Shown here piece by piece: positions 832 through 43,202 of a DNA stretch of 44,698 nt. The notes beneath the pieces were generated by a model. It saw only the letters and a program-made list of their open reading frames with translations. It made no database searches and was not told the origin of the DNA. Location: sequence record OR420686; one strand, 5' to 3'. Position 1 is the first letter of the stretch. Each line of letters begins with the position of its first letter. A program made the translations under genes and the position numbers. Origin of the DNA: Shigella phage 1b.

Positions 832-1027
832 GGTATATCTCCGATTGGTTAAGTTTAGGTGTCGGCAGTTAACTTCGTCGGTGGCCTTAACATATTGCCT
901 GGTTACGCGTTCTCCCGTTCGGGTAGTGGACCAGGTTATATAATCACGGTTGGGAATCCTGACACTTCGATCCGGCCCCTGCGTTGCCCCTCTCCAGTTT
1001 GCGTCCTGCATCCTGTCGACGGAGTGA

Positions 1028-1056
1028 ATATTAGATTGGTTGCATGAGGGAGTCAA
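1028..1056 (-). promoter_or_regulatory. sigma70-like promoter (TTGACT-N17-TAATAT) reading leftwards toward the 831 gene
   Basis: Hexamers read on the reverse complement; an ATTGGTTGCA motif lies in the spacer. Confidence 0.4.
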
Positions 1057-1065
1057 CAACTAATT

Positions 1066-1101
1066 TAAAAAAAAAGCGCCGAAGCAAAATGCGACGGCGC
1101 T
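1066..1101 (-). terminator. rho-independent terminator-like hairpin with a 9-nt U tract on the minus strand
   Basis: agcgccg...cggcgct stem preceded on the plus strand by A9, so followed by U9 on the minus strand. Confidence 0.4.
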
Positions 1102-1171
1102 AACCAATAAGAGACAATGAGACGGGGATTATTATTACACGCGTGCGCGCCTGTTTCAATATCCAAAGGAT

Positions 1172-1200
1172 TTGACACCTTGCGGTTTTAGGTGTAGTTT
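1172..1200 (+). promoter_or_regulatory. sigma70-like promoter (TTGACA-N17-TAGTTT) for the rightward early operon
   Basis: Perfect -35 hexamer, 17-nt spacer, about 30 nt upstream of the ATG at 1232. Confidence 0.45.
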
Positions 1201-1231
1201 CATTGGTCATTAACCAACTGGGGACAGAACA

Positions 1232-1561
1232 ATGAATGTAAACGACGCAATCGAAATGTTAACTAAGACTGTTTGCAGTGAGACTAGCCGGTCCTGGGCG
1301 TATACCGATGCCGTGGGTGCGGTGCTATTTGAAATCGAACGTCTGCGCAGTGTAGAAAAAGAATTGCGCGCGAAGCTGGAATTACTCAACGGTACTGCAG
1401 CAAGCAAGCTGCAAAAGCACAATGAAGAAATGGAAGAATACAAAAAGCAGGTTATCCGTTTGCGCGCCGAGGGAAAATCCTGGGCGATGATTGCCGAGTT
1501 GACCGGAATTAATCAGAGCACAGTGCGCTCCTGGGTCCGCAATAATAAAACTTCTAAGTAA
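1232..1561 (+). CDS. helix-turn-helix DNA-binding protein (109 aa), putative transcriptional regulator
   Basis: C-terminal HTH-like segment GKSWAMIAELTGINQSTVRSWVRN; N-terminal coiled-coil-like region; first gene after the divergent promoter region. Confidence 0.6.
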   Translation: MNVNDAIEMLTKTVCSETSRSWAYTDAVGAVLFEIERLRSVEKELRAKLELLNGTAASKLQKHNEEMEEYKKQVIRLRAEGKSWAMIAELTGINQSTVRSWVRNNKTSK

Positions 1562-1571: not shown

Positions 1572-3836
1572 ATGAGCTTAATTAAATTCGCTGTAACACG
1601 ACCCGCTAAAAAAGGCGAAAAAGCCAGGGCGGAAAACTTCCAGATGACCACCGAAGAGTTTTTCGAATTTATCAATGACGCGAAAGAAATCTCATCGGTG
1701 CACATCAACAAGACCGAGGATAAAGCCGAGTATGCGCGCCGCAAGCGTAAGGCCGATGGCATCGTAGCGTATACCAGTGACGGCTTACGCCGCAAGACCA
1801 GTGCGGTGGACCGCTCGATCCTGTTCTTCGATATTGACCGTACCGACACCCGCACCCTACGCCGCTGCCGTAAGGCTTTCATCGACGCGGGTCTGGAACA
1901 CGTATTTCACACCACAACCGGCGACCGCCACCCACTGAAAGGCGGCACGCGTTGCGCTCGCTTCCTGGTACTCACTGACAAGCCTGTACCGGCTGAAGAC
2001 CTGGGCCGTGTCCAGTATGCGCTATTACACCAACTTGGGCTGTCAGATGTGGACTTCGACGATTGCACGAAAGACACAAACCGCCTGATGTACCTGCCAC
2101 ACCAGCAGTCTGTAATAAAGTGTCACTACGGCAAACGTGCCCGCGTCCGTCGTCTGCTTCGCCTGGCGGATAAGTTGGGCGTGGAGAAAGAGGAAGTACG
2201 CCGCGAGCTTACCCAGGGCGACGACGCAGTGGCGGACGGGATTCTGGACTGGTGCTTCCAGGCAGGATTCGAGGAGTTATCTTCCGGTCGCGGTTATGAA
2301 GTGCCGTGCCCTAACGAACACCTGCACAGCGGCGAAGGGTCCACCGCCATAATGGTCAAGGATGGTGAGATCCGTTTCAAGTGTATGCACTCCGGCAACG
2401 AGTGTTGCTCGGAGCTGAACAGACACCAGCACCTGGCGCTGCGTCTTATCGGGATTCCGGACCACCTGAACGTCGAGCCACACAATATGTCCCGTAAGCA
2501 AATCGCCGCCATCCTTCCGGGACTGGACGACGAGGAAGTGGAGTCGTGCTATGAACATATTGTTGATGCGGTTGGCGACGGCGAAGAATACGGCGTGTGC
2601 ACCGATGCGGATCTGGATAACGAGCCGGTTGCGCTGTTCAGTAAGCACGACCCGATTATCGAGGGGTTGATTAACTTCAAATCGACCTGGTATATGGCGG
2701 GTGAGTCGAATATCGGTAAGTCTTTCTACGTGCTGGGTCAAATGGGCGCGGTCGCCGCGGGTATTCCGTTCGGCGGCGCGAAGGTCGTCCAGTCTCATTG
2801 CTTCTATTTCGACGCGGAAGGTGGTGAAGCCTCCAACCAGCGCAAAGAAGCATTGCAGATTAAATATGAGCACGACCTCGACAAGCTGCACATTATCGAT
2901 CTGCAATCTCGCGGCTGGGATATCACCAGCAAATCTGGCTTGCGCGAAGTTATCAGCTTTATCAACCGCACGGCTAACGGCGAGCCGGTTGGCCTGGTGG
3001 CGTTCGACTCACTCAACCAGACTGTCGCGCTGCGCTCCGCCGAGGCTAAACCGTTCGACGAGAACAACGCCAGCGATATGGGTGAAGTGGTCAAAGCGCT
3101 GAAGGCCATCGCGGAGAACACAGGCGGCAGTGCGGGCGTCATCCACCACCCGGCGAAAGGTGCAAACGGCAGCAGAACCCCACGCGGGTCCGGCGCGCTG
3201 CATGGTGCTGTCGATTCCGCTTTCTTCCTGGAACAGCCGGACGACAACCAGCCGGGTCAATTGAACCTGTATCACGAAAAGTCACGTAACGGCATCAAGC
3301 AAGCGCCGCGTGGCTTCGTCCTGCTCAAGTGCAAGGTTAAGGTGGATCTCCGCAAGTCAGAGGCGTTCGAGGCGCACCAGTCCACCAGCACCGGGCCAGA
3401 CTTCGGCGACGTGGTTGCCGGTTGGGACGTCAAGCCAATTGCCGCCACACCACGCGACGAGACTCTGTACCTCGTACCGGTCGCCCTGGCGCCGTTCGCC
3501 ATCGAACAGGCGAAGGCAGCAGGCAAGGCCGCGGTTAAGGAAGAGAACACCGCCGGACCGCGCAACGAAAAAGAGAAAGTGCTTTATGCGGCACTGGAAA
3601 AACTGATGGAAGATAACCCGGACCATACTGGATTCAGTAAATCGGCAATTGTCCGCCAGGCTGGGCTGGCAAAAGGTGGCACGTCGACGAAGGCAATCGA
3701 CGATATGGTCGAGCGCGGAGTGATAGGTTTTTACACCGATCCGCACACCGGGGCCATCTATGGGTCGTCTAATTTGGTCATCAAATCGGATATCCCCATC
3801 ACGCTTTCAGCGACCGATGACGATTTAAAAGATTAA
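1572..3836 (+). CDS. primase-polymerase (AEP-like) fused to a RecA-like helicase/ATPase (754 aa)
   Basis: N-terminal ILFFDIDRTD (hhhDhD-type) and FHTTTGDRH motifs; Cys/His zinc-binding cluster CPNEHLHSGEG...CMHSGNECC; Walker A GESNIGKS and Walker B-like LVAFDSLNQ. Confidence 0.75.
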   Translation: MSLIKFAVTRPAKKGEKARAENFQMTTEEFFEFINDAKEISSVHINKTEDKAEYARRKRKADGIVAYTSDGLRRKTSAVDRSILFFDIDRTDTRTLRRCRKAFIDAGLEHVFHTTTGDRHPLKGGTRCARFLVLTDKPVPAEDLGRVQYALLHQLGLSDVDFDDCTKDTNRLMYLPHQQSVIKCHYGKRARVRRLLRLADKLGVEKEEVRRELTQGDDAVADGILDWCFQAGFEELSSGRGYEVPCPNEHLHSGEGSTAIMVKDGEIRFKCMHSGNECCSELNRHQHLALRLIGIPDHLNVEPHNMSRKQIAAILPGLDDEEVESCYEHIVDAVGDGEEYGVCTDADLDNEPVALFSKHDPIIEGLINFKSTWYMAGESNIGKSFYVLGQMGAVAAGIPFGGAKVVQSHCFYFDAEGGEASNQRKEALQIKYEHDLDKLHIIDLQSRGWDITSKSGLREVISFINRTANGEPVGLVAFDSLNQTVALRSAEAKPFDENNASDMGEVVKALKAIAENTGGSAGVIHHPAKGANGSRTPRGSGALHGAVDSAFFLEQPDDNQPGQLNLYHEKSRNGIKQAPRGFVLLKCKVKVDLRKSEAFEAHQSTSTGPDFGDVVAGWDVKPIAATPRDETLYLVPVALAPFAIEQAKAAGKAAVKEENTAGPRNEKEKVLYAALEKLMEDNPDHTGFSKSAIVRQAGLAKGGTSTKAIDDMVERGVIGFYTDPHTGAIYGSSNLVIKSDIPITLSATDDDLKD

Positions 3837-3845: not shown

Positions 3846-3946
3846 GCATTGGTTGCCATTATGGGAATCCCCATATCGGTAAATGATTAAATTTTGCGCG
3901 CATTGGTTGCCATTTTGCGGGCTTTTAGGTGGTCGCATTGGTTGCC
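3846..3946. repeat. three direct copies of GCATTGGTTGCC (3846, 3900, 3935), with an inverted copy at 4218-4229
   Basis: Read directly; the first two copies sit in a ~25 bp direct repeat aaatt(c/t)tgcgcgcattggttgccatt. Confidence 0.7.
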
Positions 3947-4160: not shown

Positions 4161-4313
4161 ATCCAGTATTGCATAACGCACGGCAGCATGATGCGGATTG
4201 CGGTCGTCGATGAACTAGGCAACCAATGCGAGTTGCAGAATGGTGGGTGAGAAATGCAGTTTGCAGTCACAGCAGATAGCGATCAACTTTTTCATGCGCG
4301 TGATTAATATTGG

Positions 4314-4342
4314 TTGCGTTCGGCAAGGCGCCCTGCTATATT
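4314..4342 (+). promoter_or_regulatory. sigma70-like promoter (TTGCGT-N17-TATATT) followed by the conserved block TATATTGGTTGCACACCAAC
   Basis: Hexamers read directly; the same 20-bp block recurs in reverse at about 15527-15546 upstream of the minus-strand gene starting at 15505. Confidence 0.45.
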
Positions 4343-4370
4343 GGTTGCACACCAACATGAGGGCCGAACA

Positions 4371-4685: not shown

Positions 4686-4955
4686 ATGAGCCGTAGGCGA
4701 GCTAAACAGCTTTCGTGGCATATTCCCCTGCATTGCATACGAATATGGGCTAAGAATGCGAATGAGGGCGATTCTGTGTTCTGGTGCTACCGCGATGAGG
4801 TGAAGCCATTAACGCAGACTCGCTACTTGCACCAGTTCGCCAGGGAGCATGGGTTAGCCATAAAAACGTCCTTGCAACCAATGGGGATCCGTATTACATT
4901 ACGCCGGAAGCCCGCCGTTGAGCGGGCGGGCAAACACTGGAGACTGAGCAAATGA
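4686..4955 (+). CDS. hypothetical protein (89 aa)
   Basis: ORF with AAGGGG RBS; tightly packed in the operon. Confidence 0.5.
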   Translation: MSRRRAKQLSWHIPLHCIRIWAKNANEGDSVFWCYRDEVKPLTQTRYLHQFAREHGLAIKTSLQPMGIRITLRRKPAVERAGKHWRLSK

Positions 4956-7538: not shown

Positions 7539-7568
7539 TTGACTTGCAACCAACACAGGGGCCATACT
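7539..7568 (+). promoter_or_regulatory. sigma70-like promoter (TTGACT, 17-18 nt spacer, CATACT) flanked by two TGCAACCAA motifs
   Basis: Read directly; about 30 nt upstream of a GAGGAG RBS. Confidence 0.4.
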
Positions 7569-7597
7569 GCAACCAATCAACGAGAGGAGTAAACAAG

Positions 7598-7850: not shown

Positions 7851-7914
7851 TGCCTCGCCGCCATACGGACCGTGATATATTGTCCACGGTCCACTAATCA
7901 GGAATTAATTAAAT

Positions 7915-9057
7915 ATGCACCCGCAAACTAAAATTACCGATGAGCAATTGATCGCCGAGTTGCAATCCGGCACTACCTCGAAAGATATTGCGAAGAAATA
8001 CGGGATTGCCCTACGCAATGTTTATATGCGGAAAGCCCGCCTATCGAAAAAAGGCATTGGACACGGCAACGATGCCGTAATCCGCAAGCGCGTTGCCGAT
8101 GGCTTTGGGGTTAAGCGCGTATCGGCCCTGGTGCGCGGCAATGGCGAAGAGGTCATGTCGTGGGTCATCACGGAGCAGGACAAAGAGCGCCAACTCGAAG
8201 CCATGCGCGCTGTTGTCGAGGGTATGAACAGCGAAATCACACCGGCAGCGCCAGTAAAAGCCCCGCCAGTACCGATCCAGGCGCTCGACTTGCTCAACCT
8301 GTACACCGTATCCGACTTCCACCTGGGCATGTTGGCATGGGGCGAGGAGACTGGCGAAGACTGGGATATGGCGATCGCCGAAGACCTGTTTTACCGCTGG
8401 TTTGTTGAAGCCTTCGCCCGCGCACCGGACGCAGGCACTGCCGTAATTAATATCCTCGGTGATATGGCCCACTTTGATAGCCTCGATGCTGTCACTCCGG
8501 CAAGTGGTCACATACTGGACGCTGACACCCGCTACCAGAAACTGGTCCGATACATGATTCGCATGGTGCGCAACGTCGTCGAACTGGCGCTGCAAAAACA
8601 CCACAAAGTCAAACTGCTAATCGTCCAGGGGAATCATGACGAGTCTGGCATGATTTGGCTGGCTGAAATGTTCAATACGCTGTACGAGAACGAGCCGCGC
8701 GTTGATGTGGACACGTCCCCGGACGTATACAAAATGGTGCAACACGGCAAGACCACGCTATTCTTCCACCACGGGCACAAAGCGCGCTTCGATGCTATCG
8801 AAACCGTCATGATTTCTAAATTCAGACAGGCTTTCGGATCCAGCGAGTACAGCTACGCGCATGTAGGCCACTTGCACCACCAGAAGATTGTAGAATCCCG
8901 CAACATGATTGTTGAACAGCACCGGACCCTCGCCGCGAAAGACGCATATGCCAGCCGCGGCGGTTGGATGTCCGGTCGTAGTGCCAACGTCATCACCTAC
9001 AGCGCCAATTACGGCGAAGTGGCGCGCTTAACCATTAGCCCGGAAATGTTGAAATGA
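7915..9057 (+). CDS. calcineurin-like metallophosphoesterase with N-terminal HTH domain (380 aa)
   Basis: Metallophosphatase motifs DFHLG, GDMAHFD, GNHD, HHGH, GHLHH in canonical order; N-terminal HTH-like TSKDIAKKYGIALRNVYMRKARL. Confidence 0.75.
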   Translation: MHPQTKITDEQLIAELQSGTTSKDIAKKYGIALRNVYMRKARLSKKGIGHGNDAVIRKRVADGFGVKRVSALVRGNGEEVMSWVITEQDKERQLEAMRAVVEGMNSEITPAAPVKAPPVPIQALDLLNLYTVSDFHLGMLAWGEETGEDWDMAIAEDLFYRWFVEAFARAPDAGTAVINILGDMAHFDSLDAVTPASGHILDADTRYQKLVRYMIRMVRNVVELALQKHHKVKLLIVQGNHDESGMIWLAEMFNTLYENEPRVDVDTSPDVYKMVQHGKTTLFFHHGHKARFDAIETVMISKFRQAFGSSEYSYAHVGHLHHQKIVESRNMIVEQHRTLAAKDAYASRGGWMSGRSANVITYSANYGEVARLTISPEMLK

Positions 9058-14386: not shown

Positions 14387-15151
14387 TTAGCGCGGAATAC
14401 CGCAAATCTCGTTGAGAGTTTTCACATCCAGCGCCACCGCCGTGGACTTCGGCTTGTCCGGGTAAGGGATGAATTGCTCAACTTCAGGCCATGCATTAAT
14501 CAGCTTCGTATCGGTATTGTGCATATCCAGCACGCCGGTAACAGTTAGTTTGAACGCGTCATACTTAGCCCGCAACTCACGGCGGGCCTTGTCGTTACGG
14601 TCCAGGCGCTTGCAGAAATCATGGTCCGCCGGGTAGTCTACGCGACCGCGCGGAAGATATATCGGCAGCGATTTTCCGTCCTCGTCCACTTCGCACACTG
14701 AAGCCAGCATAACTTCCTCGTACCCCGGTACGATATCGCCGAGATCGGGAGATAGCTTATTCATGTATTTATATTCCCAGTATCCGCGATGTACGCGGTA
14801 TTGGCGACCGTCACCGCTCATGGACAAGGTGCGCACATTTCCGCCTGCGTTGATTTCGAAAGTGGCGTCATAAACGCTGCCGATACCGTTCGGGCTGTCG
14901 GCGTCATAACGATACGTCGCCTTGTTGGTGTAGACGCAGACGCAGTACATTGGCGACTTGGCACCTTCTAGTGCTTCAATATATGCGCGTAACTCGGCGA
15001 ACGTGCGAATGCCTTCCGGCATACAGTCCAGCGTAATGGCATAAGCCAGGTCGCGCGAGTCCACCATGATTTGTTTGGCTTCGGTTGCGATTTCATGGTC
15101 GCGCAGGATGTTAGCCAGGATCTGATTTTTAATGACTTTCGTCAGTCTCAT
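14387..15151 (-). CDS. hypothetical protein (254 aa), opposite strand to the surrounding morphogenesis genes
   Basis: Long ORF with GAGGA RBS; no recognisable motif. Confidence 0.6.
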   Translation of the reverse strand: MRLTKVIKNQILANILRDHEIATEAKQIMVDSRDLAYAITLDCMPEGIRTFAELRAYIEALEGAKSPMYCVCVYTNKATYRYDADSPNGIGSVYDATFEINAGGNVRTLSMSGDGRQYRVHRGYWEYKYMNKLSPDLGDIVPGYEEVMLASVCEVDEDGKSLPIYLPRGRVDYPADHDFCKRLDRNDKARRELRAKYDAFKLTVTGVLDMHNTDTKLINAWPEVEQFIPYPDKPKSTAVALDVKTLNEICGIPR

Positions 15152-15190
15152 TTTTATGTCCTCATTTTAGGGGCTTCCGCCCCGTTTGGT

Positions 15191-15505
15191 TTAGTTGAAT
15201 TTGATGTTGCCGCCGGTGGAAGTTAAGCGAGCACATACAGCTTCAACGGCATCGACGCACATGAAATCGTTAAAGGCTTCGACCAGGGCGTTAATGAAAG
15301 ATGCCGGAACCAGGCCGCAAGCCGGATTATCGAATGTCGCGGAGTTGATCGCCGCTTTTGCCGCTTCGGAAGCATTCATGCTCTGGCACAGATTCAGCGC
15401 TTCCGCGTTACGCATTGCGTGAAAGGTAAAGGTATTCGCTACGGTAGCTTTATTGAAACGGGCCATTGCGGCGTCTACTGGAGTTGCTACGGTCATGTTA
15501 GTCAT
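15191..15505 (-). CDS. hypothetical Ala-rich protein (104 aa), first gene of the divergent two-gene unit
   Basis: Track ORF trimmed to the ATG at 15505, which has an AAGGAA RBS; promoter-like block upstream. Confidence 0.55.
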   Translation of the reverse strand: MTNMTVATPVDAAMARFNKATVANTFTFHAMRNAEALNLCQSMNASEAAKAAINSATFDNPACGLVPASFINALVEAFNDFMCVDAVEAVCARLTSTGGNIKFN

Positions 15506-15540
15506 CTTGTTTTCCTTCATATCTCTGTTGGTGTGCAACC

Positions 15541-15570
15541 AATATAGCGCAACCAACTCCCGCAGTGCAA
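15541..15570 (-). promoter_or_regulatory. sigma70-like promoter (TTGCAC-N18-TATATT) for the minus-strand two-gene unit
   Basis: Read on the reverse complement; shares the block TATATTGGTTGCACACCAAC with the promoter at 4314-4342. Confidence 0.45.
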
Positions 15571-21446: not shown

Positions 21447-21508
21447 GTTTGTTTTAAATTCGCTGATACAATGAACGACGGCAACTGCATAAAAAGGGGG
21501 ACTGCATA

Positions 21509-31369: not shown

Positions 31370-31588
31370 TTACTTGCAGGTGGTGCTTTTGAAGTGGTCT
31401 ACCGACACATACTGGAAGTTGAACGGATACCCAGCCCGTAACATTTTATGACCGCTAACGTCTGCAACCCCAAACACCGGGACTGAATACTCCATGCCAC
31501 TATTCATGTATGTCGCGTCGCAGATTTTAGACGGCATGTTGGCACAACCTGACAAAAGAACCGCACAAATCATAATTAAAGTTTTCAT
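31370..31588 (-). CDS. small lipoprotein (72 aa), candidate superinfection-exclusion factor
   Basis: Track ORF trimmed to MKTLIMICAVLLSGC (signal peptide plus lipobox LLSGC); AGGAGAT RBS; opposite strand to the flanking tail genes. Confidence 0.55.
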   Translation of the reverse strand: MKTLIMICAVLLSGCANMPSKICDATYMNSGMEYSVPVFGVADVSGHKMLRAGYPFNFQYVSVDHFKSTTCK

Positions 31589-31668
31589 GGTATCATCTCC
31601 TATATTTGGTTGGGTTTTAGTATTGCACCTCTCAACCAAGAATGCAACCAATTTATGAGGATTCAGCT

Positions 31669-33266: not shown

Positions 33267-33289
33267 GGGGCCGTATGGCCCCATTTTTA
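33267..33289. terminator. bidirectional terminator hairpin between convergent transcription units
   Basis: ggggccgtatggcccc followed by atttttag on the plus strand; lies between the tail fibre stop and the stop of minus gene 33287..33862. Confidence 0.6.
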
Positions 33290-33862
33290 GTTTGAGTTTT
33301 CCCAGTCCATTTTGCGACGCACCAGCGGGCTTTCGTAGTATTCCTTACCGTCCACTTCCACCAGAGGCCAGTCGTTCACAATCACGTATGGCTCCGCGAT
33401 ATCCTCGATCACGCCGTGCGCGCTTTGCGGCCCTAACGATACGCCCACCAGGATAACACCGGCAACGCGACGGGTAAGGTATTCGCGAGCGCAACGTGCC
33501 TCAACCAGACCGCGACGGATGCCGCTGGTGGCCTTAACCTCGTAAGTCCATACGGCATCGATCACATGCTCGCGGAAGTCGGGGCCGGACTTAACCTTGC
33601 GTTTGCCGACCATGATAATATCGCCGCGGTCGATTGTGTTAGCGCTAAACAGGCCGGTACGCATTAGCAAACCTTGCGGGATACAGCTACGCCCGCCCGC
33701 CTGCCCTTCGAGGTACATGCCTGCAAACATCTCGCCAAGCACACCGACAAGACGGCTTTGCTTGCACGCGTCAGACTTGTATCGCCACTGGTCAAACTCG
33801 ATGCTTGCAATCATTGCCGCCAGGTGGAATTGTTTACCGGTTATTTCGTATTCGCCATACAT
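33287..33862 (-). CDS. hypothetical protein (191 aa); possible PD-(D/E)XK-like nuclease fold
   Basis: GAGGG RBS; D...EVK arrangement (IDRGDIIMV ... TYEVKA) loosely resembles the PD-(D/E)XK core. Confidence 0.5.
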   Translation of the reverse strand: MYGEYEITGKQFHLAAMIASIEFDQWRYKSDACKQSRLVGVLGEMFAGMYLEGQAGGRSCIPQGLLMRTGLFSANTIDRGDIIMVGKRKVKSGPDFREHVIDAVWTYEVKATSGIRRGLVEARCAREYLTRRVAGVILVGVSLGPQSAHGVIEDIAEPYVIVNDWPLVEVDGKEYYESPLVRRKMDWENSN

Positions 33863-33903
33863 TGTGAATCCCTCATTGATGCGGGCCTAAGCCCGCGATT
33901 AAA

Positions 33904-34461
33904 TTATTTAAGTGCGCCAGTCACCAGTGTTTTTTCCATGTTACGGAAATCTTCCTGCGTCATGCAGATTTTAGATCCGTCTTCGCCCATGAGCACGACC
34001 ATAGGCTGGACGTCTTGGGCTACAACCCCAAAATCGTTGGCCTTCACCGTCTTGCCCGCGGAAGAATGCCCGCCTTTGAGGCTGTCGAATTGTGCTGCCG
34101 TTGTATCGATCTGAATCTCACCGTCGAGACGCACGGACAGGCCTTTGAGGCTATCGCATTGCGCTGCCGTTATGTCGATTTGAATCTCGTCATGCACGGT
34201 CATGTAAGACTCGCCCAGCAGGGCGGCATACGCCACCAGGTCCACGATATTATCTTCCTGGTGCTTACGGTGCTGGCGCACCAGCTTCAGACAGATCAGG
34301 AAGGTCCAGGCTTCTTGCTCGGTAAGGTCGCGCCCGGTAAGCGCGTTAAACACGGCAGCGATTTGTTTAGCGATGCGTTCTTCATGGTCGTCATAGCCGT
34401 TTTCTTTCCCGCGCTGTTCCATAGTGGTGGCGGCGTTTTTGCAGTATTCGTATGCTTTCAC
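33904..34461 (-). CDS. hypothetical protein (185 aa) with an internal 23-aa tandem repeat
   Basis: GTG start with AAGGG RBS; 69-bp tandem duplication at about 34072-34209 encodes EIQID(I/T)TAAQ(C/F)DSLKG twice. Confidence 0.55.
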   Translation of the reverse strand: MKAYEYCKNAATTMEQRGKENGYDDHEERIAKQIAAVFNALTGRDLTEQEAWTFLICLKLVRQHRKHQEDNIVDLVAYAALLGESYMTVHDEIQIDITAAQCDSLKGLSVRLDGEIQIDTTAAQFDSLKGGHSSAGKTVKANDFGVVAQDVQPMVVLMGEDGSKICMTQEDFRNMEKTLVTGALK

Positions 34462-34507
34462 AGTATTACCCTTTTAGTGAGGGGGCTGTATTGCCCCCGA
34501 CACGTTT

Positions 34508-34537
34508 ACTATAGTGCAACCAACCTATTGGTTGCAA
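34508..34537 (-). promoter_or_regulatory. sigma70-like promoter (TTGCAA-N18-TATAGT) containing the palindrome TGCAACCAA-ccta-TTGGTTGCA
   Basis: Read on the reverse complement; perfect 9-bp inverted repeat with 4-bp spacer at about 34515-34536 sits in the spacer. Confidence 0.5.
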
Positions 34538-34995
34538 GTGAATTTTGCAACGTTTATTGCGTAAATTTTAGGGACCAAATCACCACACGCCCGACGAATT
34601 GCCGCGATGTTCTTCTCGCAATCTTCAATGATGACCAGTTCAGACACGTCCGCGTAACAGACCATTTTGAACACGGCGCACGCCTTAAACTCTGGCGGCG
34701 GGGTGTCGTCCAGCATGTGGCGCATAAACAACCGGCCTGTCGGGAATACTTCCAGTTGTTCGGCGGTGGTGTCCCAACATTCTCGCTGCCGGTTGGTCAG
34801 ATACGCGATCTCGAAGCCTTGCGCTTTATACATGCGCAACAGCGGCAGCATATCCATGTTCAGATCTTCGCGTGTATGCGCTTTGTGCCACTTCGCCCAG
34901 AAGGTGGATTTTGTTTTTATACCCGGCACCAGGTCGGCCCGCGCATCGCTTGAACCGTTAATAACGCCATCCAAATCGCAAATCAGTAATTTCAT
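34525..34995 (-). CDS. HAD-superfamily hydrolase (putative phosphatase/nucleotidase)
   Basis: N-terminal MKLLICDLDGVI matches HAD motif I; GAGGAA RBS. Confidence 0.6.
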   Translation of the reverse strand: MKLLICDLDGVINGSSDARADLVPGIKTKSTFWAKWHKAHTREDLNMDMLPLLRMYKAQGFEIAYLTNRQRECWDTTAEQLEVFPTGRLFMRHMLDDTPPPEFKACAVFKMVCYADVSELVIIEDCEKNIAAIRRACGDLVPKIYAINVAKFTCNQ

Positions 34996-35225
34996 TTCAA
35001 TTCCTCGATCAGATTCATACGAACAACACGGGCAGAAAAAGCGTCACACACAAGATGGCAACGGGCGGTCATTACAAGCCAGCCGGTAAGGTCCATGCCG
35101 AGCAATTGCTCCGGGCGACTGACCCGCAGCACTTTGTTCTCCCTCGGGTTAATTTGGTAGCGTTTAACAATTTCGTCCACGACGCGCATACTGCGGTCAA
35201 CGACTAAGATATTCATGTAGCTCAC
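34992..35225 (-). CDS. hypothetical protein (77 aa)
   Basis: GTG start per track; overlaps neighbouring genes by a few bases. Confidence 0.4.
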   Translation of the reverse strand: MSYMNILVVDRSMRVVDEIVKRYQINPRENKVLRVSRPEQLLGMDLTGWLVMTARCHLVCDAFSARVVRMNLIEELK

Positions 35226-35682
35226 TCTCGCTCATTATTTCAATTTGTGCGCTGCCGATTGGTGGCGCTTCGTCAAAGATTATCAATTGCTGGCACTTGT
35301 TATTGCTCGGCCCGACTTCACCGGTGACAGCATGTATAAATCGTATCCGCCAGTCCAGAAGAATTATCAGGTTTGCAGTCTTCCGGGCCAACTTCGCCCA
35401 CTTCGTCGACGTGTCCTGATTCAGCAGCATGACAGTCCGTCGTCCGTGCGCTGCGCACTCGACCCACGGCAGCGGATCGGAATACGGCGGGTTGCACCAC
35501 TTCCACCCTTTCAACTCTGACCAGTCCACATCGAGCGCGCTGTTCTCCGCCGTGAAGTAACGCGGCAGCAGGTGGTTGGCGTCGCTCGCCGCCATATCGT
35601 AACGGAATCGGTACTTACGACGCAGTGGTTTAAATAAAGCTGGCGGCGTGCGCCAGCTATCTTTTTGCTCACTCTTCTGCAT
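35197..35682 (-). CDS. DNA N6-adenine methyltransferase (phage Dam family)
   Basis: DSWRTPPALF...YDMAASDANH...WCNPPYS: the NPPY catalytic motif and the N-terminal DxWxTP signature of phage Dam-type methyltransferases. Confidence 0.75.
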   Translation of the reverse strand: MQKSEQKDSWRTPPALFKPLRRKYRFRYDMAASDANHLLPRYFTAENSALDVDWSELKGWKWCNPPYSDPLPWVECAAHGRRTVMLLNQDTSTKWAKLARKTANLIILLDWRIRFIHAVTGEVGPSNNKCQQLIIFDEAPPIGSAQIEIMSESELHEYLSR

Positions 35683-36133
35683 GGTCGGTGTCTATCGCAT
35701 ACAGGGCGATTTTATTGCCGGTTTTGAGAATGCGTTGCACGCGCTTTGTCTCCTCAGCACTAAGCGGGCGCGCGTCCGGGTAGAAGCTGCCATTTGTAGG
35801 GTTGCGCCACGCCATAAGCACCAAATCTTTACGGTCAACCTTAGACTGGCGACCTTTGGGGGGCACGTATCCCTCGGCGCGTTTGCATTGCTCGCGCAGA
35901 CCTTCGGCAGTGATGCGGTTTAGTGCAACGCTGGTGGTGTATCCGGTGCGCTGCATAATCCCCATCAATTCGAATAGCAGTTCGAAGCGCTCCTCTAACT
36001 CCTTGCGCACTTTCTTCTCTCCTTCATATAGCGCCTGGTTGGTGTCCGCCAACGCGTTCGCACGTTCGGCCTGTTCACGGGCTTCGAAGCATTGCGCGGC
36101 CCAGTATGCTTTTTCTTCTTGTAAAATTTTCAT
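35669..36133 (-). CDS. hypothetical protein (154 aa), coiled-coil N-terminus
   Basis: GGAGA RBS; no motif recognised. Confidence 0.5.
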   Translation of the reverse strand: MKILQEEKAYWAAQCFEAREQAERANALADTNQALYEGEKKVRKELEERFELLFELMGIMQRTGYTTSVALNRITAEGLREQCKRAEGYVPPKGRQSKVDRKDLVLMAWRNPTNGSFYPDARPLSAEETKRVQRILKTGNKIALYAIDTDHAEE

Positions 36134-36152
36134 CGTGATGTCTCCAGGTATT

Positions 36153-36178
36153 AAAAAGGGCGTCCAAACCGGACACCC
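36153..36178 (-). terminator. terminator-like hairpin with U tract on the minus strand, in the 5' region of gene 35669..36133
   Basis: gggtgtccggtttggacgccc followed by TTTTT on the minus strand; lies immediately downstream of the predicted promoter at 36181-36209. Confidence 0.4.
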
Positions 36179-36180
36179 TC

Positions 36181-36209
36181 AATATAATGCAACCAATATG
36201 ATTATGCAA
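36181..36209 (-). promoter_or_regulatory. sigma70-like promoter (TTGCAT-N17-TATATT) with two direct TGCAACCAAT motifs
   Basis: Read on the reverse complement; motif copies at about 36188-36197 and 36205-36214. Confidence 0.45.
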
Positions 36210-36214
36210 CCAAT

Positions 36215-36538
36215 TTACGAATAAAAATTTGGATCGCGCGCTACGTCTACCAGATACAGATTGCTGATTCTGTTGCCGTAGTGGCCTGGTGTGCGCTGGC
36301 GGCACACAACGGCGTAGCCTGGAGGAATTGTATTGCCTGTCGCGATGATCCACGCCACGCGTGCGCCAGACAGCGTCTTGCCGTTGCATTCGATGCGCGT
36401 GCCGCCATCGGCAGTGTTAAGGTTGCCGATCTTGCAGCCTGTGGACTTCAGGCGAATGACGCCGGTTTTGCTGTCGTAGGAGAATAACTGGTTAGTCATT
36501 GCGACCGAAAAATCAATGGCTTCGAATGTAGTATTCAT
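36215..36538 (-). CDS. HNH_3/AP2-like protein, apparently degenerate (catalytic His not evident)
   Basis: YDSKTGVIRLKSTG...GARVAWIIATGNTIPPGYAVVCRQRTPGHYGNRISNLYLV follows the layout of HNH_3-type phage endonucleases, but the usual aHR and VDHxN positions are replaced. Confidence 0.4.
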   Translation of the reverse strand: MNTTFEAIDFSVAMTNQLFSYDSKTGVIRLKSTGCKIGNLNTADGGTRIECNGKTLSGARVAWIIATGNTIPPGYAVVCRQRTPGHYGNRISNLYLVDVARDPNFYS

Positions 36539-36720
36539 TTTAAATTTTCCTCATTGACTGCTATCGCGAAGCCGCGCGGGGTGAGCGACCTGATTAATTT
36601 GGTGCGGGCTGATTTGCCTCCGAGGCGACTATACTGCTTCGAGTACCCATTTTCAACGAAAACAGGTTTCTTCTCTGGCATACGGAAGCCGCTGCCGTCA
36701 AATAATGACCAGATAATCAT
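36535..36720 (-). CDS. hypothetical protein (61 aa)
   Basis: Small ORF overlapping both neighbours by 4 bp. Confidence 0.4.
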   Translation of the reverse strand: MIIWSLFDGSGFRMPEKKPVFVENGYSKQYSRLGGKSARTKLIRSLTPRGFAIAVNEENLK

Positions 36721-38141
36721 TTGCGCGCCTTTTTAGCTTTCATGTATTCCATCAAATCGTCCTGAATATCCCGCTTACTGTCGCGACGCTCGGCGACCAG
36801 TTCGTCAAGTGTGCCGCGCGCCTGGATAATGTAGACGAATACCGGACGAGGGTGTCCGGCTTGCATCTGGCGAACCGGCCCTATACGCTCCACAATCTGC
36901 GAAAAGTGCTCAAAGTTCCATGTGTCTGAGAAGATAGCAAGGTGGTGCCCACCATCCTGCAAGTTAAGGCCGTGACCCGCCGATGCCGGGTGCGCGAACA
37001 TGATGGGGATCTCGCCCCTGTTCCACGCTTCCATATCCTTATTGCCCTGCTTACCTTTACCCAACGCAACGCCGTGCGGAAATTTCTTCTTGAGACGCGC
37101 AAGATCATGCTTGTACTGGTACGCGACGAGCAACGGTGCGCCGTTCAACTCCTCCACGATACTTTCCAGCGCGTCCAGCTTAGCGTCGTGAATCTTCACC
37201 CATTCGTCGGTGCGCTCACCGTCTTCGTCCACCTTATACACGGCCCCGGAAGCAAGCTGAAGGCACTTGATAGTCTTCGACGCAGCGTTCGCCGCCTCCA
37301 CTGTTCCGCTTTCCAGTTCCGCAAATAGCTCCGCTTCGAACTGGTCATAAATCTTGCGGGCTTTCTTCGGCAGGTCCACAACAACCGGCGTATATATTGG
37401 CTTGTCACATCCGAAGTATTCAGCCGCATCAACGGTTAGCGACACGTCTGACAGGCGTTGTTGTATTTCTTTCTCGGAGTTTTTTAGCGGGGCGTGCTGC
37501 ATAGTGAAGCTGCCAGGCTTAACCGGCTTGCTAATAAACCAGCGGTCTGTGAACGCCTTATAGCTACTGCCGAGGCGTTCTCCACCGTCGACAAACCACG
37601 TCTGACCCCATAGGTCTTTCAGTCCGTTTGGTGCGGGTGTGCCGGTAAGGTTAATCCAGCGTTTGACGTGCTTATGCGCAATAGCCGCCAGGGCGCGGGC
37701 GCGCTTACTGCCCTGCTTGCTGCGGTAGCCTTTCAGCTTAGTGGATTCATCGGCAACAACGACCGTAAAGGGCCACTCGTCGCCGCAATAGTCAACCAGC
37801 CACTCAACCACATCATAGTTAACACAAACCACGTTAGCGTCGCTCTCAAGCGCAGCGATGCGGTCCTTCTCTGGTCCGGTGCCGTCTACTACCAGCAGGG
37901 CAGGGAAGCGCCATTTTTCTTGCTCCGGGGGCCATGTACCGGACGCAACGCGCAGCGGGGCCAGCACCAGTACGCGGTCCTCCTGGTTGGACAGGATGCC
38001 AGTCTGGAACATTTTATTCAGTGCCCACATGGTCGCGCCGGTTTTACCCGACCCCATTGTCGCCCATATATTGCATCGCTTGTGCTTGAGGATGAACGCG
38101 GTTATCAACTTCTGATATTCGCGACGTCGGAAACGTGCCAT
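36717..38141 (-). CDS. SNF2-family (DEAD/DEAH-like) helicase
   Basis: Track ORF trimmed to MARFRRREYQ; Walker A WATMGSGKTG, DExx box VVADESTKLK, TGTPAPNGLKDL motif, C-terminal helicase domain (FAHPASAGHGLNLQ). Confidence 0.85.
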   Translation of the reverse strand: MARFRRREYQKLITAFILKHKRCNIWATMGSGKTGATMWALNKMFQTGILSNQEDRVLVLAPLRVASGTWPPEQEKWRFPALLVVDGTGPEKDRIAALESDANVVCVNYDVVEWLVDYCGDEWPFTVVVADESTKLKGYRSKQGSKRARALAAIAHKHVKRWINLTGTPAPNGLKDLWGQTWFVDGGERLGSSYKAFTDRWFISKPVKPGSFTMQHAPLKNSEKEIQQRLSDVSLTVDAAEYFGCDKPIYTPVVVDLPKKARKIYDQFEAELFAELESGTVEAANAASKTIKCLQLASGAVYKVDEDGERTDEWVKIHDAKLDALESIVEELNGAPLLVAYQYKHDLARLKKKFPHGVALGKGKQGNKDMEAWNRGEIPIMFAHPASAGHGLNLQDGGHHLAIFSDTWNFEHFSQIVERIGPVRQMQAGHPRPVFVYIIQARGTLDELVAERRDSKRDIQDDLMEYMKAKKARK

Positions 38142-38145
38142 ATCT

Positions 38146-38370
38146 TTATTCCGCCTTTTTCCAGACTTCGGTTTCACTGTTCCAGTTCCTTTTTGTGGCG
38201 TCGTAGTTGGTGCTGTGCCCGACGTGCACACCCGTCGCCCGGAAGCTCTTAAATTTTTGCCAGCACACCGTCAACGGCAGCGGGGAATTCATGCCAGCAA
38301 TAAACCATACGCGATCGCCTGGTTTACATTCGCCCAGCTTGGTGAGTCGGTAATGTTCTTTCATCGTCAT
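38146..38370 (-). CDS. hypothetical protein (74 aa)
   Basis: GGAGAC RBS; stop 5 nt before the helicase start. Confidence 0.5.
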   Translation of the reverse strand: MTMKEHYRLTKLGECKPGDRVWFIAGMNSPLPLTVCWQKFKSFRATGVHVGHSTNYDATKRNWNSETEVWKKAE

Positions 38371-38407
38371 GTCTCCGAAAAATGGCGGGACAAGCCCGCC
38401 GTATTAA

Positions 38408-38581
38408 TTATTTTTGCTCTGCGCGGTAGCGGCGCTGCCGTTCGCGCTCTTTTTTATTGCGGCATGATTTGCACTCTGCCCGATACCCGTCCGGGCTTCG
38501 CGCAGTCTTACCGGTGTATTTATGGAACTGGGATAGCGGTTTAACGCAGCCGCAATTACTGCAGCGTTTTTCTTCAATCAT
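38408..38581 (-). CDS. small zinc-ribbon protein (57 aa) with basic C-terminus
   Basis: Track ORF trimmed to MIEEKRCSNCGC (GAGGA RBS); two CxxC pairs; resembles the N-terminal zinc-ribbon repeats of the HNH protein at 38897..39499. Confidence 0.5.
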   Translation of the reverse strand: MIEEKRCSNCGCVKPLSQFHKYTGKTARSPDGYRAECKSCRNKKERERQRRYRAEQK

Positions 38582-38621
38582 TTCGAAAATCCTCGATAGT
38601 GCTAACCGGCCCACTATACCG

Positions 38622-38900
38622 CTATGCGACCAATTCAGCAACCAATAAATCACAGTCGGCTATGTTGTCGATGACGCGAACGTCCGCACCGCGGCGGGCC
38701 ATTCGCTCATGTTCTCGTACCTGGTGCGGCTTCGGTTTGCCACCGGGGCGCTTCACTTCGACGAACACTATTTTGCCGTTGATGATAATAATCAGGTCGG
38801 GCGCACCTGCGCGCCCCTCCCATGCCAGTTTTCGGCAGAATCCGCCAACGGCTTTAACCAGCTTCATCAGGTGACTTTGAATTTTGCCTTCTGGAGTCAT
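38622..38900 (-). CDS. VRR-NUC domain nuclease
   Basis: Track ORF trimmed to MTPEGKIQ (AAGGAAAAG RBS); PDLIII...VFVEVKRPGG...EHER matches the VRR-NUC PD-(D/E)XK pattern. Confidence 0.7.
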   Translation of the reverse strand: MTPEGKIQSHLMKLVKAVGGFCRKLAWEGRAGAPDLIIIINGKIVFVEVKRPGGKPKPHQVREHERMARRGADVRVIDNIADCDLLVAELVA

Positions 38901-39499
38901 TGTCGGCTTTTCCTTACGGCAGCTATGGCGGGGCCAATAAACTTCCGCATTTCGTCCGGGGTAAACCGGTCCCCGCGGGCTATGTTGCACTCTACGCAGC
39001 ACGGTACGCAGTTATCCTTCGTATGACCTACCGTGTTGTCGAGTCGGTCCGCGCCATTGTCACCGGAGAACCCGCAGTATGCGCACGGCTGAGAAGTAAG
39101 GCGCAGCACGTCATCTGTAGTAAGGTCGGTGTTTAGCCCTTTCCTTTCGTCTGCCTTACGGTACTGAAAGAGCTTATAGTAAGCGCGGATCTCTGGTGTC
39201 CGGTGGTTGTACTCACGGCGGGACTTATTAGAGCACGATCGGCATTCTTTACGAATATGTGACCCGTTTGCCCGGCTTCCGGGCCGGAAGTTTTCCGGCG
39301 TGAGCGGCTTGCGCTCACCGCACGTACGGCATGTTACGATCTCCCCGGTGTACTCTCGCCATACTTCTCTCGGCGGCGCTCCTCTTTCCTTATCCCGTCT
39401 CTCTTTCTTATATGCCGCCATGCATTTGGCGCACCACGACTGGCCCTTGTTGAAAGCGGACTCATCTTTATCCGTATTACAACGCCCACAATGTTTCAT
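38897..39499 (-). CDS. HNH endonuclease with two N-terminal zinc-ribbon repeats
   Basis: Track ORF trimmed to MKHCGRCNTD (GGGGGTG RBS); C-terminal CAYCGF...DRLDN...GHT.DNCVPCCVECN is a canonical HNH motif. Confidence 0.8.
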   Translation of the reverse strand: MKHCGRCNTDKDESAFNKGQSWCAKCMAAYKKERRDKERGAPPREVWREYTGEIVTCRTCGERKPLTPENFRPGSRANGSHIRKECRSCSNKSRREYNHRTPEIRAYYKLFQYRKADERKGLNTDLTTDDVLRLTSQPCAYCGFSGDNGADRLDNTVGHTKDNCVPCCVECNIARGDRFTPDEMRKFIGPAIAAVRKSRQ

Positions 39500-39566
39500 A
39501 TACACCCCCGAAAAAGAAAACGCCAGACAATAATGCCCGACGTTTCCGCTAAAAGCAACATTTCCG

Positions 39567-41858: not shown

Positions 41859-42025
41859 TGCTTAATCCTCACTACGGCGTCAGCGCTGCCGATCATGGAG
41901 AAGATACCGTCGGAAAGGGTTATCTCCTCGCCGTTGTTGCGAATCTCGGCAACGGTGAAATACTCGCCCAGCAATTTAGACCATACTCGCATTCCGACTT
42001 TTACTTCGCTGGCTTTAATGCGCAT
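41855..42025 (-). CDS. small hypothetical protein (56 aa); below the track cutoff
   Basis: ATG with AGGA RBS; TGA stop overlaps the polymerase ATG (ATGA arrangement). Confidence 0.3.
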   Translation of the reverse strand: MRIKASEVKVGMRVWSKLLGEYFTVAEIRNNGEEITLSDGIFSMIGSADAVVRIKQ

Positions 42026-42039
42026 TTTTCATTGTCCTA

Positions 42040-42064
42040 TTAAAAAGCCCGCATTAAGCGGGCC
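42040..42064 (-). terminator. rho-independent terminator downstream of the SSB-like gene
   Basis: ggcccgcttaatgcgggc followed by TTTTT on the minus strand. Confidence 0.5.
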
Positions 42065-42083
42065 TGAATAGTGGGCTTTGCCC

Positions 42084-42869
42084 TTAACGGCGGCGACGTT
42101 TGCGTGGTGCTTCGTCTTCGTCGTCGTCCTCATCATCTTCGTCATCGCGTGGCTTACGACGTTTACGAGGTTTCTCGTCTTCGTCTTCGTCATCGTCATC
42201 GCGGCGCTTGGATTTTTTGGACTTGCGCGGTTTGTCGTCTTCGTCATCGTCATCACGACGTTTTGACTTTTTGGACTTACGCGGGCTTTCGTCTTCGTCA
42301 TCGTTGTCCAGGTCTTCGTCGGAACATGAAGACCCGCCACCGCCGAAGGCTTCGCCGTCTTCACGGAATCGCAGACCCAGCAAGCCCGCCCCAAGACCCT
42401 TGCCGTTGGTATTGTTCCACGCCCAAATATCGAGGGACACGTTGCAATAACAACCGGAATAGATCTCCTGGCCTTCGATCTCGTCGCCTTCTACGGTCAG
42501 ACCTTGTTCCGTCTGCTTCTCGCCCAGTGACGTTTGGATGTTAGGCTGTTTGAACGATTTAGCGTTGATGTACAACATGCCTTCAAATTCTTCGGTTACT
42601 TCGTCACGCTCGTCACCGTCGCGAACTGCGCATTCCTTAGAATCCTGGGCGTAGTGGCGGTCCATCCACTTATCGGCATTCTTCTCGGATTTCAGCTTGT
42701 CGGTGAGCACTGCGCGCGCTGCCGCTTCCACTTTGTCCACCTGCGGATCTTCTTTATCAAGAAGAATCACGGCGCGGTATGCCGGTTTTTGTCCATCCTG
42801 TTTAGGGGTGTCACGTTCCCAAATTTTCAGGAAACATACGCGCACATTTTTCAGGTTGACTTTCGCCAT
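42084..42869 (-). CDS. ssDNA-binding-like protein (DUF2815/T7 gp2.5-like) with a long repetitive acidic/basic C-terminal tail
   Basis: Track ORF trimmed to MAKVNLKNVRVCF (GAGGAG RBS); N-terminus typical of phage gp2.5-like SSBs that pair with a DUF2800-type exonuclease; C-terminal 90 aa are alternating DDDDEDE and KSKKSKRR tracts. Confidence 0.5.
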   Translation of the reverse strand: MAKVNLKNVRVCFLKIWERDTPKQDGQKPAYRAVILLDKEDPQVDKVEAAARAVLTDKLKSEKNADKWMDRHYAQDSKECAVRDGDERDEVTEEFEGMLYINAKSFKQPNIQTSLGEKQTEQGLTVEGDEIEGQEIYSGCYCNVSLDIWAWNNTNGKGLGAGLLGLRFREDGEAFGGGGSSCSDEDLDNDDEDESPRKSKKSKRRDDDDEDDKPRKSKKSKRRDDDDEDEDEKPRKRRKPRDDEDDEDDDEDEAPRKRRRR

Positions 42870-42934
42870 TTTCCAACTCCTCATTTTCACATGTATCGGG
42901 GTTATTGGAAGCCACCCCGTTCGGCTTGGTTGCT

Positions 42935-42963
42935 AATTTACTTGGTTGCGCCTAAGCGGTCAA
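42935..42963 (-). promoter_or_regulatory. sigma70-like promoter (TTGACC-N17-TAAATT) with two TTGGTTGC motifs
   Basis: Read on the reverse complement; motif copies at about 42926-42933 and 42942-42949. Confidence 0.4.
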
Positions 42964-43202
42964 GCGTTTTTATTAAAAAGATTTCTGGTAACGTAGTTGG
43001 TCGCGTTCTCGATCCAGCTTAACGGCGGGCGGTTGATGTTCTTCTCCACCCAATCGACGGCAGCTTCGCTATAGCCGTCATCCAGCCAGCGGGTCGGATG
43101 TCGAATCATCCACGCCACCATTAACACGCCTTGCACGCAATGCAGGATAAATCCAAGCGCGCCGATAACAAACATCAATAAGATTGCGAATACTTTATTC
43201 AT
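42960..43202 (-). CDS. small membrane protein (80 aa)
   Basis: N-terminal hydrophobic helix (VFAILLMFVIGALGFIL); GAGGA RBS. Confidence 0.5.
   Translation of the reverse strand: MNKVFAILLMFVIGALGFILHCVQGVLMVAWMIRHPTRWLDDGYSEAAVDWVEKNINRPPLSWIENATNYVTRNLFNKNA

Follow-up and report, generated by a model that had tools for sequence, protein, structure and literature searches.

Four described systems come closest to the regulatory word considered here. In phage lambda, Cro is a small helix-turn-helix (HTH) protein encoded by the first rightward early gene, whose 17-bp pseudo-palindromic sites in OR and OL overlap the early promoters, including its own. In the Bacillus virulent phage phi29, the early protein p4 has sites in or beside host-polymerase promoters and represses the early ones, besides activating the late promoter through a site at a fixed place upstream. 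The MotA box of phage T4 is a phage-specific word of approximately 9 bp that defines a temporal promoter class and can replace the -35 hexamer, and it is found in one orientation and at one position (about -30). Finally, DnaA boxes and plasmid Rep iterons are short asymmetric sites that occur in tandem in origins and over promoters, the regulator's own included. In the searchable literature, we found no description of promoters, transcripts, temporal control or a TTGGTTGC motif for Dhillonvirus/HK578 phages, and a search with the motif string returned primers only. The TTGGTTGC system described below is most likely an undescribed example of an ordinary phage regulator-operator switch.

The window, by which we mean the whole stretch of 44,698 nucleotides from Shigella phage 1b (OR420686), aligns at approximately 91% identity, along the greater part of its length, with Escherichia phage SM_S22 and further phages of the genus Dhillonvirus. 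These are the HK578-like virulent siphophages of E. coli, which are widely used in defense-system and phage-therapy work (BASEL phages, SECphi18, PhiSMS22). The whole genome is present in a rotated form, with the small terminase gene beginning near 9362; the gene annotation was carried over from SM_S22 via tblastn. Leftward genes at 33287-44631, continuing through 4-1011, specify replication, recombination and modification functions. Rightward genes at 1232-9266 code for an HTH protein, a primase-helicase, small unknown proteins, lysis proteins and a phosphoesterase, and the structural block (genes 9362-33264) contains two leftward morons, namely the Nmad5 operon and the cor superinfection-exclusion gene (31370-31591). 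The following loci recur in the argument:

1232..1561, plus strand: 109-aa HTH protein, candidate reader of the motif (Pfam, alignment, AF2 and fold matches)
1572..3836, plus strand: primase-helicase with an AAA_25 core, rival candidate reader
14387-15505, leftward: Nmad5 operon, a moron

The initial annotation had described a 9-mer, TTGGTTGCA, recurring at promoter regions, and a word does exist within 1-3 bases of each position it listed. Counting both strands, the 9-mer itself is found at 11 sites; dinucleotide shuffles predict 0.57, and none of 100 shuffles reaches 11. As the unit, however, it is one base too long: the remaining listed sites (3846, 3900, 3935, 4218, 4309, 15549, 42926 and 42942) deviate at the ninth base, where they have C, G or T, leaving the 8-mer TTGGTTGC as the invariant core. 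This occurs in 22 exact copies where an order-3 Markov model predicts 2.0. The comparison of coding with non-coding density proposed as a check of the motif places 17 of the 22 in the 6.6% of the DNA that is non-coding (binomial P = 1.6e-16), and two further copies lie in the last codons of genes abutting a promoter (34528 and 38638). Sites absent from the earlier list are one at 38637, with a variant at 38625, and in-gene copies at 4873, 22831 and 26180; the last two are the sole copies that look like chance, which agrees with the approximately two expected. In an alignment of 19 sites, the sole informative flanking positions are -1, where 14 of 19 have A, and, weakly, +9; the preferred form is A-TTGGTTGC-A. 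With no conservation further out, this is a short word without symmetry, as opposed to one half of a longer palindrome. One-mismatch variants show no enrichment in non-coding DNA (3 of 38, P = 0.46), with the exception of the recurrent TTGGTCGC, which is paired with a canonical site at 38625 and takes the place of the T at orthologous sites in some relatives.

Several trivial origins can be set aside. Chance or composition is excluded by the shuffle, Markov and binomial enrichments. Duplication of a promoter cassette fails as the sole cause, since the flanks are unrelated save for one 23-bp block and the positions within promoters differ; that block, noted before as TATATTGGTTGCACACCAAC upstream of 4371 (plus) and 15505 (minus), is exact and extends to 23 common bases. 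A DNA methyltransferase or nuclease target is excluded by argument, the word being asymmetric and confined to non-coding DNA. An RNA-level element is unlikely because the sites occur in both orientations relative to transcription; an Rfam search of the window gave no match. It is close to certain that TTGGTTGC is a selected protein-binding regulatory site. Its spread had been overstated as "most" intergenic regions: about 10 of the approximately 27 intergenic regions of at least 20 bp carry it, and these all precede early, replication or moron genes, none of them a structural or lysis operon.

A simple sigma-70 scoring scan, using the hexamer frequencies of the classical compilations, was run upstream of ten genes and returned the same promoters as had been picked by eye; the promoters and start sites given here are predictions. 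Nine of the ten scanned regions bear sites, and all of these sites fall between -39 and +3 of the predicted start region. Altogether, approximately 20 copies are accounted for by the large non-coding region that follows the primase-helicase gene and by predicted sigma-70 core promoters, which belong to early, replication and moron genes:

1036..1044, plus strand: site in the spacer (-22..-15) of the leftward promoter TTGACT-17-TAATAT (1056 to 1028), upstream of gene 835..1011 (scan)
3849..3946, plus strand: three TTGGTTGCC sites (3849, 3903, 3938) at the start of the post-primase-helicase region
4218..4226, minus strand: TTGGTTGCC site on the opposite strand, within 3837-4370
4310..4349, plus strand: two direct sites (4310, 4341) in the 4371-operon promoter TTGCGT-17-(TG)TATATT (scan)
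4873..4881, minus strand: site inside gene 4686..4955, in a predicted internal promoter TTGCAA-17-TACATT for gene 4952 (scan)
7545..7576, minus strand: two sites (-29..-22, -6..+2) in the rightward promoter TTGACT-18-CATACT, after a terminator at 7509-7530 (scan)
15534..15556, minus strand: two direct sites (-22..-15, -8..-1) in the moron operon promoter TTGCAC-18-TATATT, which serves the minus-strand operon of 15191..15505 and Nmad5 (14387..15151) (scan)
31643..31651, minus strand: site supplying the -35 of cor (31370..31591), TTGCAT-17-(TG)AATACT (scan)
34508..34537, minus strand: predicted sigma-70 promoter of gene 33904..34461 (DUF6378) (sequence and promoter scoring)
34536 to 34515, minus strand: two everted sites, TGCAACCAA from 34536 to 34528 and TTGGTTGCA from 34523 to 34515 (sequence)
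36188..36213, minus strand: two direct sites 17 bp apart (-39..-32, -22..-15) in TTGCAT-17-TATATT, promoter of the operon running from 36133 to 34525 (scan)
38625..38645, minus strand: TTGGTTGCT and the variant TTGGTCGCA in the promoter TTGCTG-17-TATAGT of gene 38408..38581 (Lar-like) (scan)
42926..42950, plus strand: two sites (-21..-14, -5..+3) in the leftward promoter TTGACC-17-TAAATT of the ssDNA-annealing/DNA polymerase operon (scan)

Within these promoters the sites recur, in both orientations, at a small set of places: -39..-32, about -34..-21, -22..-15 and -8..+3. Forward sites at -39..-32, whose TTGC forms a TTGCnn -35 hexamer, are seen at the 4371 operon (which has its second site at -8..-1 and includes the shared block), cor, the 36133 operon and the Lar-like gene. 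Sites at -22..-15, touching the -10 in either orientation, occur upstream of 835..1011, nmad5, DUF6378, the 36133 operon and the ssDNA-annealing operon, and sites over the -10/+1 region (-8 to +3) at the 4371 operon, nmad5, the ssDNA-annealing operon and orf7598. Deeper in the spacer there are single sites at -34..-27, -29..-22 and -27..-20. The -35 assignments are not independent of the motif, because its TTG adds to some -35 scores; the -10 assignments are independent of it.

The palindrome TGCAACCAA-ccta-TTGGTTGCA reported at 34515-34536 is exact. It occupies the DUF6378 promoter, where a -35 TTGCAA (34537-34532) and a -10 TATAGT (34513-34508) are separated by an 18-nt spacer and the two sites take the places -34..-27 (reverse) and -22..-15 (forward); its 4-base center contains the stop codon of gene 34525..34995. 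The palindrome is perfectly conserved in the relatives L001-L003, in which the downstream flank varies. It is, nevertheless, the sole everted pair among ten neighboring pairs in the window, the other nine being direct repeats with start-to-start spacings of 12-55 bp. Of the proposal of an operator for a dimeric regulator, the first half is the best-supported reading, through promoter placement, conservation and co-occurrence with an HTH protein whose DNA-reading half is invariant; the second half does not hold, as palindromy is not general. A second symmetric form, TTGGT-N5-ACCAA, is present in 3 copies against approximately 0.04 expected by our own arithmetic (1203, 4341 and 15528), each directly after a -10 hexamer.

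The initial annotation had also offered a phage-specific extended promoter element. A fixed element of this kind for RNA polymerase is unsupported, and so are sigma-54 and MotA-box readings, since orientation and position vary, with at least four position classes here against the single one of MotA; yet the motif does supply the -35 in four promoters. For sigma-54, the -24 GG and -12 GC have no counterpart, as GG and GC are 2 bases apart in TTGGTTGC and the spacings of the pairs also misfit. A looser version, in which the word is a positive element that recruits RNA polymerase directly (as an unusual -35 or extended element) or via an activator in the manner of a MotA box and so switches on a middle class, is unlikely in our estimate. 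It draws on the forward -39..-32 site being the only -35-like hexamer (TTGCnn, 3-4 of 6 matches) in four promoters of the window and three of the sister lineages, and on the match of the 1232..1561 HTH to Sigma70_r4_2, but the occurrence of sites in both orientations and their places at -22..-15 and -8..+3 are incompatible with polymerase contact or class I/II activation. Moreover, several site-bearing promoters already have near-consensus hexamers without help from the motif (TTGACT-17-TAATAT, TTGACC-17-TAAATT), and a site at +4..+11 of the regulator's own strong promoter, seen in sister lineages, fits repression. If the 1232..1561 protein is the reader, repression by occlusion with autoregulation is likelier than activation, given the sites within the spacer, over the -10/+1 and downstream of the start of the regulator's own promoter. 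The forward sites at -39..-32, which take the place of a weak -35, would also fit activation and allow for a dual role.

Other promoters lack the word. Four non-coding TGnTAYAnT extended -10 elements on the plus strand, with neither a -35 hexamer nor the motif, are found at 6267, 7873, 9305 and 21464 (TGATATAGT, TGATATATT, TGTTATAAT and TGATACAAT, respectively); five of the seven genome-wide matches to TGnTAYAnT are non-coding. The element at 6267 comes before the holin/lysis genes, those at 7873 and 9305 before the phosphoesterase-terminase block and that at 21464 before the tape-measure gene, and the four are probably a second promoter class, late or constitutive. The existence of such motif-free promoters means that the motif marks one promoter class and not promoters generally. 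In phi29, as noted, p4 activates the late promoter as well, whereas the late-type promoters here have no motif.

The word is retained across relatives. SM_S22, CHD5UKE2 and Teewinot have 20-21 copies of the 8-mer at syntenic places. In four intergenic regions, aligned for 9-17 distinct relatives, identity is 0.94 in motif columns versus 0.86 in other non-coding columns (Mann-Whitney P = 6e-5), and the spacers between sites vary while the sites persist. At 4310-4349, the 17-nt spacer is rewritten in almost every one of 16 relatives with both sites kept; the pair at 42926..42950, in reverse orientation relative to transcription, is invariant in 16 relatives, the site at 1036..1044 in the 10 aligned ones, and that at 4873..4881 is conserved in L001 and L002. 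Five diverged metagenomic lineages, with primase-helicases 66-69% identical where measured (L004, L006), are strongly enriched: L004 has 13 copies of TTGGTTGC in 20 kb (1.3 expected) and L006 has 9 in 6 kb (0.45 expected), while TTGGTYGC is present in 8-13 copies in each of the 7-12-kb loci L024-L027. In the three lineages scanned for promoters (L004, L024 and L027), the position classes of the window are seen again.

In the comparison of one clade with one outgroup that underlies the association, all seven lineages examined that have the HTH protein show enrichment of the motif, and two Guernseyvirinae genomes have a single, chance-level TTGGTTGC copy each. The latter have in common with the Dhillonviruses a divergent early region and a 44%-identical primase-helicase, and specify a Cro/C1-type HTH protein at the syntenic position. 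This distribution also bears on whether an enterobacterial host DNA-binding protein reads the sites and is exploited by the phage. All sampled relatives with a named host do infect Enterobacterales, but the Guernseyvirinae, with the same hosts and the same replication module, are without the motif, which instead tracks the phage HTH protein in every one of the seven lineages; no E. coli regulator is known to have a TTGGTTGC consensus. We consider a host reader very improbable.

The phage protein that the distribution points to is the product of 1232..1561, the first gene of the rightward immediate-early operon. Residues 65-105 score above the Pfam cut-offs for HTH_23 (30.8 bits, cut-off 24.6), HTH_28 (28.4, cut-off 25) and Sigma70_r4_2 (27.7, cut-off 25.7); the Cro/C1 family HTH_3 reaches 17.3 bits, under its cut-off of 23, which the syntenic Guernseyvirinae proteins pass. 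In the AlphaFold2 model (mean pLDDT 86.8), a short helix is followed by one of 59 residues (21-79), and the HTH lies at the C-terminus (84-107). The HTH superposes on the DNA-binding domains of LuxR/GerE, sigma-4, DeoR and serine recombinases, with weak Foldseek E-values and aligned segments at ~1 Å rmsd. Across 24 homologs, residues 47-106 are almost invariant, the whole recognition helix included, as is expected of a DNA-reading half when approximately 20 scattered sites would need to change with their reader. Relative to L004, the C-terminal half is 83% identical, like the DNA polymerase and large terminase, against 66% for the primase-helicase and an undetectable N-terminus. Homologs were found only in Dhillonvirus and close relatives, and every lineage with the protein has the motif; a scan of viral contigs with the HTH profile recovered Dhillonvirus-like contigs only. 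Among 27 small proteins scanned, this is the sole predicted sequence-specific regulator. Of the two binders suggested originally, it alone retains support, since in the 7915..9057 protein, taken for an HTH-phosphoesterase, Pfam finds Metallophos and no HTH at E <= 0.01. The 1232..1561 protein probably reads TTGGTTGC.

Residues 1-46 of the same protein (window 1232-1369) show at least five unrelated replacement sequences with a fixed junction, A-K/R-LELLNGTAA. This looks like cassette exchange, possibly at an arms-race or partner-specificity interface.

The promoter of the HTH gene has a related element of its own:

1203..1217, plus strand: TTGGTcattaACCAA inverted repeat just past the -10 of the HTH gene promoter (TTGACA-17-TAGTTT), a putative autoregulatory operator

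TTGGTcattaACCAA holds the same promoter place in all Dhillonviruses, and in the sister lineages L004, L024 and L027 a full GCAACCAA is present at +4..+11 of the HTH gene promoter, which is strong in each (TTGACG, TTGACA or TTGCAC, a 17-nt spacer and TATATT). Placement of this kind at the predicted promoter of a regulator's gene is the usual signature of negative autoregulation.

The largest group of sites lies elsewhere. The 534-bp non-coding region 3837-4370 after the primase-helicase gene contains six sites, four of them as TTGGTTGCC, in the order TTGGTTGCC tandem unit, GCGGGACA repeats, conserved hairpin and then the 4371 promoter. The first two TTGGTTGCC sites belong to a tandem repeat of approximately 54 bp with 1-6 copies among relatives. 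Tandem direct repeats in non-coding DNA adjoining a replication gene are the arrangement of iterons, and from this anatomy 3837-4370 is a probable replication origin. Like DnaA boxes and Rep iterons, TTGGTTGC is thus a short asymmetric site present both here and over promoters, including that of its candidate regulator; unlike in those systems, there is no homology to the proteins concerned, the same region carries a second, lineage-variable iteron class, and the origin is assigned from anatomy only.

This second repeat class lies just upstream of the conserved hairpin (cccagtctttcagactagacgggg...) at 3975-4170 in the window, 12640-12840 in L004 and 6640-6760 in L027. It is GCGGGACA in the window, L006 and L024, GGTGCCA in L004, L025 and L026, and GTGTGGCA in L027, switching while TTGGTTGC stays constant. 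It tracks neither the N-terminus of the HTH protein nor, by inspection, the winged helix of the primase-helicase. GCGGGACA accompanies N-terminus types A and C alike, and GGTGCCA types B and D; a co-variation of the N-terminus with the repeat class, hinted at by three lineages, is unsupported with seven. GCGGGACA is likewise disfavored as the target of the HTH protein, as L004, L025, L026 and L027 lack it and the HTH is invariant. Further GCGGGACA/GTCCCGC repeats, some palindromic, cluster together with CTGCATAA repeats in the tail genes (21128-21380 and 21438-21502, between the chaperone and tape-measure genes) and are conserved in L001-L003.

A replication protein, either the primase-helicase through its C-terminus or another early protein, could be the reader, with the sites serving primarily as origin or loading sites and coupling replication to transcription through their presence in promoters. 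Residues 620-754 of the primase-helicase (window 3429-3833) are predicted to form a MarR-like winged helix (core pLDDT ~80-89), which no Pfam family or PDB sequence match covers; a search with this fragment alone found no homologs, the full-length query having given them. The six sites clustered after its gene, some within the variable-copy repeat, form a cluster seen in every lineage. In the Guernseyvirinae, with their homologous primase-helicase, a similar word, ATGTTGGCTG, is repeated only in the equivalent post-primase-helicase non-coding region (TS33, L007 10865-11190; SE1, L008 3813-4141). On account of the predicted winged helix and these ATGTTGGCTG repeats, at least those TTGGTTGCC sites near the probable origin could have a replication protein as their reader. 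However, the winged helix differs considerably across lineages in which TTGGTTGC is invariant, as is the recognition helix of the HTH protein, and the variable iterons (GCGGGACA, GGTGCCA or GTGTGGCA) are the more natural partner for a variable reader. Furthermore, approximately 14 sites are in promoters far from the putative origin, and genomes that have the primase-helicase without the HTH protein lack the motif. As the general reader of the word, a replication protein is improbable.

With moderate confidence, we favor the reading of TTGGTTGC as the operator of a phage regulator, most likely the 1232..1561 protein, acting mainly by promoter occlusion, with autoregulation. From the enrichment, placement, conservation and co-occurrence of the motif, we infer both the identity of the binder and repression as the effect. 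Host sigma-70 RNA polymerase would first transcribe 1232..1561 from its strong promoter, which has no exact TTGGTTGC site. The protein would then bind single 8-9-bp sites via its C-terminal three-helix HTH. A possible pairing or bridging of two heads by the long helix would account for sites usually coming in twos at flexible spacing. As the sites overlap the -35, fill the spacer by the -10 or cover the -10/+1, their occupancy should keep RNA polymerase out or trap it. The result would be a turn-down of the early, replication and moron promoters, the regulator's own included, with the extended -10 promoters of lysis and structural genes unaffected. The TTGGTTGCC cluster in the probable origin beside the primase-helicase gene may point to a second role, in replication. 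That one protein with a single invariant DNA-reading head both marks the origin and shuts every early promoter, with its N-terminal 46 residues exchanged as a cassette, is a conceivable though doubtful extension. If true, N-terminal exchange between otherwise near-identical phages would hint at an arms race at this interface, for example with an immune sensor or another target in the host.

The predicted circuit is close to that of lambda Cro in that the candidate is a small HTH protein from the first rightward early gene, with sites overlapping the predicted early promoters and its own, and in its expected effect, a turn-down of early transcription in lytic growth. It differs in the protein, which is HTH_23/sigma-4/resolvase-like, with a long helix and a swappable N-terminus, and in the sites, which are asymmetric 8-9-mers, mostly in direct repeats of variable spacing, and not the two-fold symmetric operators of ~17 bp expected for the Cro/C1 family. 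It also spans approximately 10 promoter regions versus two, in a virulent phage without a CI partner. The phi29 p4 protein resembles the candidate as an early repressor of host-polymerase promoters in a virulent phage, although no sequence or fold relation to 1232..1561 was found. The HTH protein likewise matches only generic HTH families and none of MotA, with whose box TTGGTTGC shares its approximate length, its link to a promoter class and its capacity to stand in for a -35.

An operator common to approximately 10 early and moron promoters, together with its probable reader, would offer a direct handle for engineering Dhillonviruses, for instance in choosing gene insertion sites for early expression or in silencing or deregulating cor, nmad5 and anti-defense genes. 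It also gives a testable map of early and late promoter classes and of the probable origin. The gain is practical and not surprising, because the circuit is conceptually a standard phage regulator-operator.

Two of these genes deserve comment. The cor superinfection-exclusion gene (73 aa, 31370-31591, minus; PHROG 1119, E = 1e-28) lies between the tail genes and the tail fiber gene with a motif-bearing promoter of its own; the locus is annotated as two tiny plus-strand ORFs in SM_S22 and as a minus-strand gene in Teewinot. The nucleotide-modification-associated gene nmad5 (14387-15151, minus), in its leftward moron operon, has been reported as the trigger of the Tmn defense system in the close relative PhiSMS22 (PMC11846954). 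Since a two-site motif promoter drives it, its expression would fall under the proposed control.

Some promoters are combined with terminators. The leftward early promoter TTGAAA-17-(TG)AATAAT (1159-1058, minus) is followed after ~30 nt by a strong intrinsic terminator (stem AGCGCCG/CGGCGCT and T9; -16.2 kcal/mol, z = -3.0). This arrangement predicts an RNA of ~60 nt or an attenuated leader, and the ORF annotated in SM_S22 as a "hypothetical protein" (window 1034..1210) is probably not a gene. At 36134-36214 (minus), promoter and terminator are interleaved, a hairpin and T-run (GGGTGTCC..GGACGCCCTTTTT) starting 3 nt past the -10. Here, read-through from upstream would terminate, and transcripts from the promoter itself would lack the 5' arm. 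Stem-loops are also present downstream of promoters at 34480-34500 and 42895-42920.

Finally, the most over-represented octamer of the window is a different word, ACGGCAGC, with 32 copies against approximately 3 expected (e.g., 743, 3166, 9141 and 25053). It is dispersed in coding DNA with a plus-strand bias (23 versus 9; 52 versus 23 for ACGGCAnC) and might reflect a polar signal or an effect at the codon or peptide level. Hafnia phage TS33 (28 copies) and Salmonella phage SE1 have an excess of it as well.
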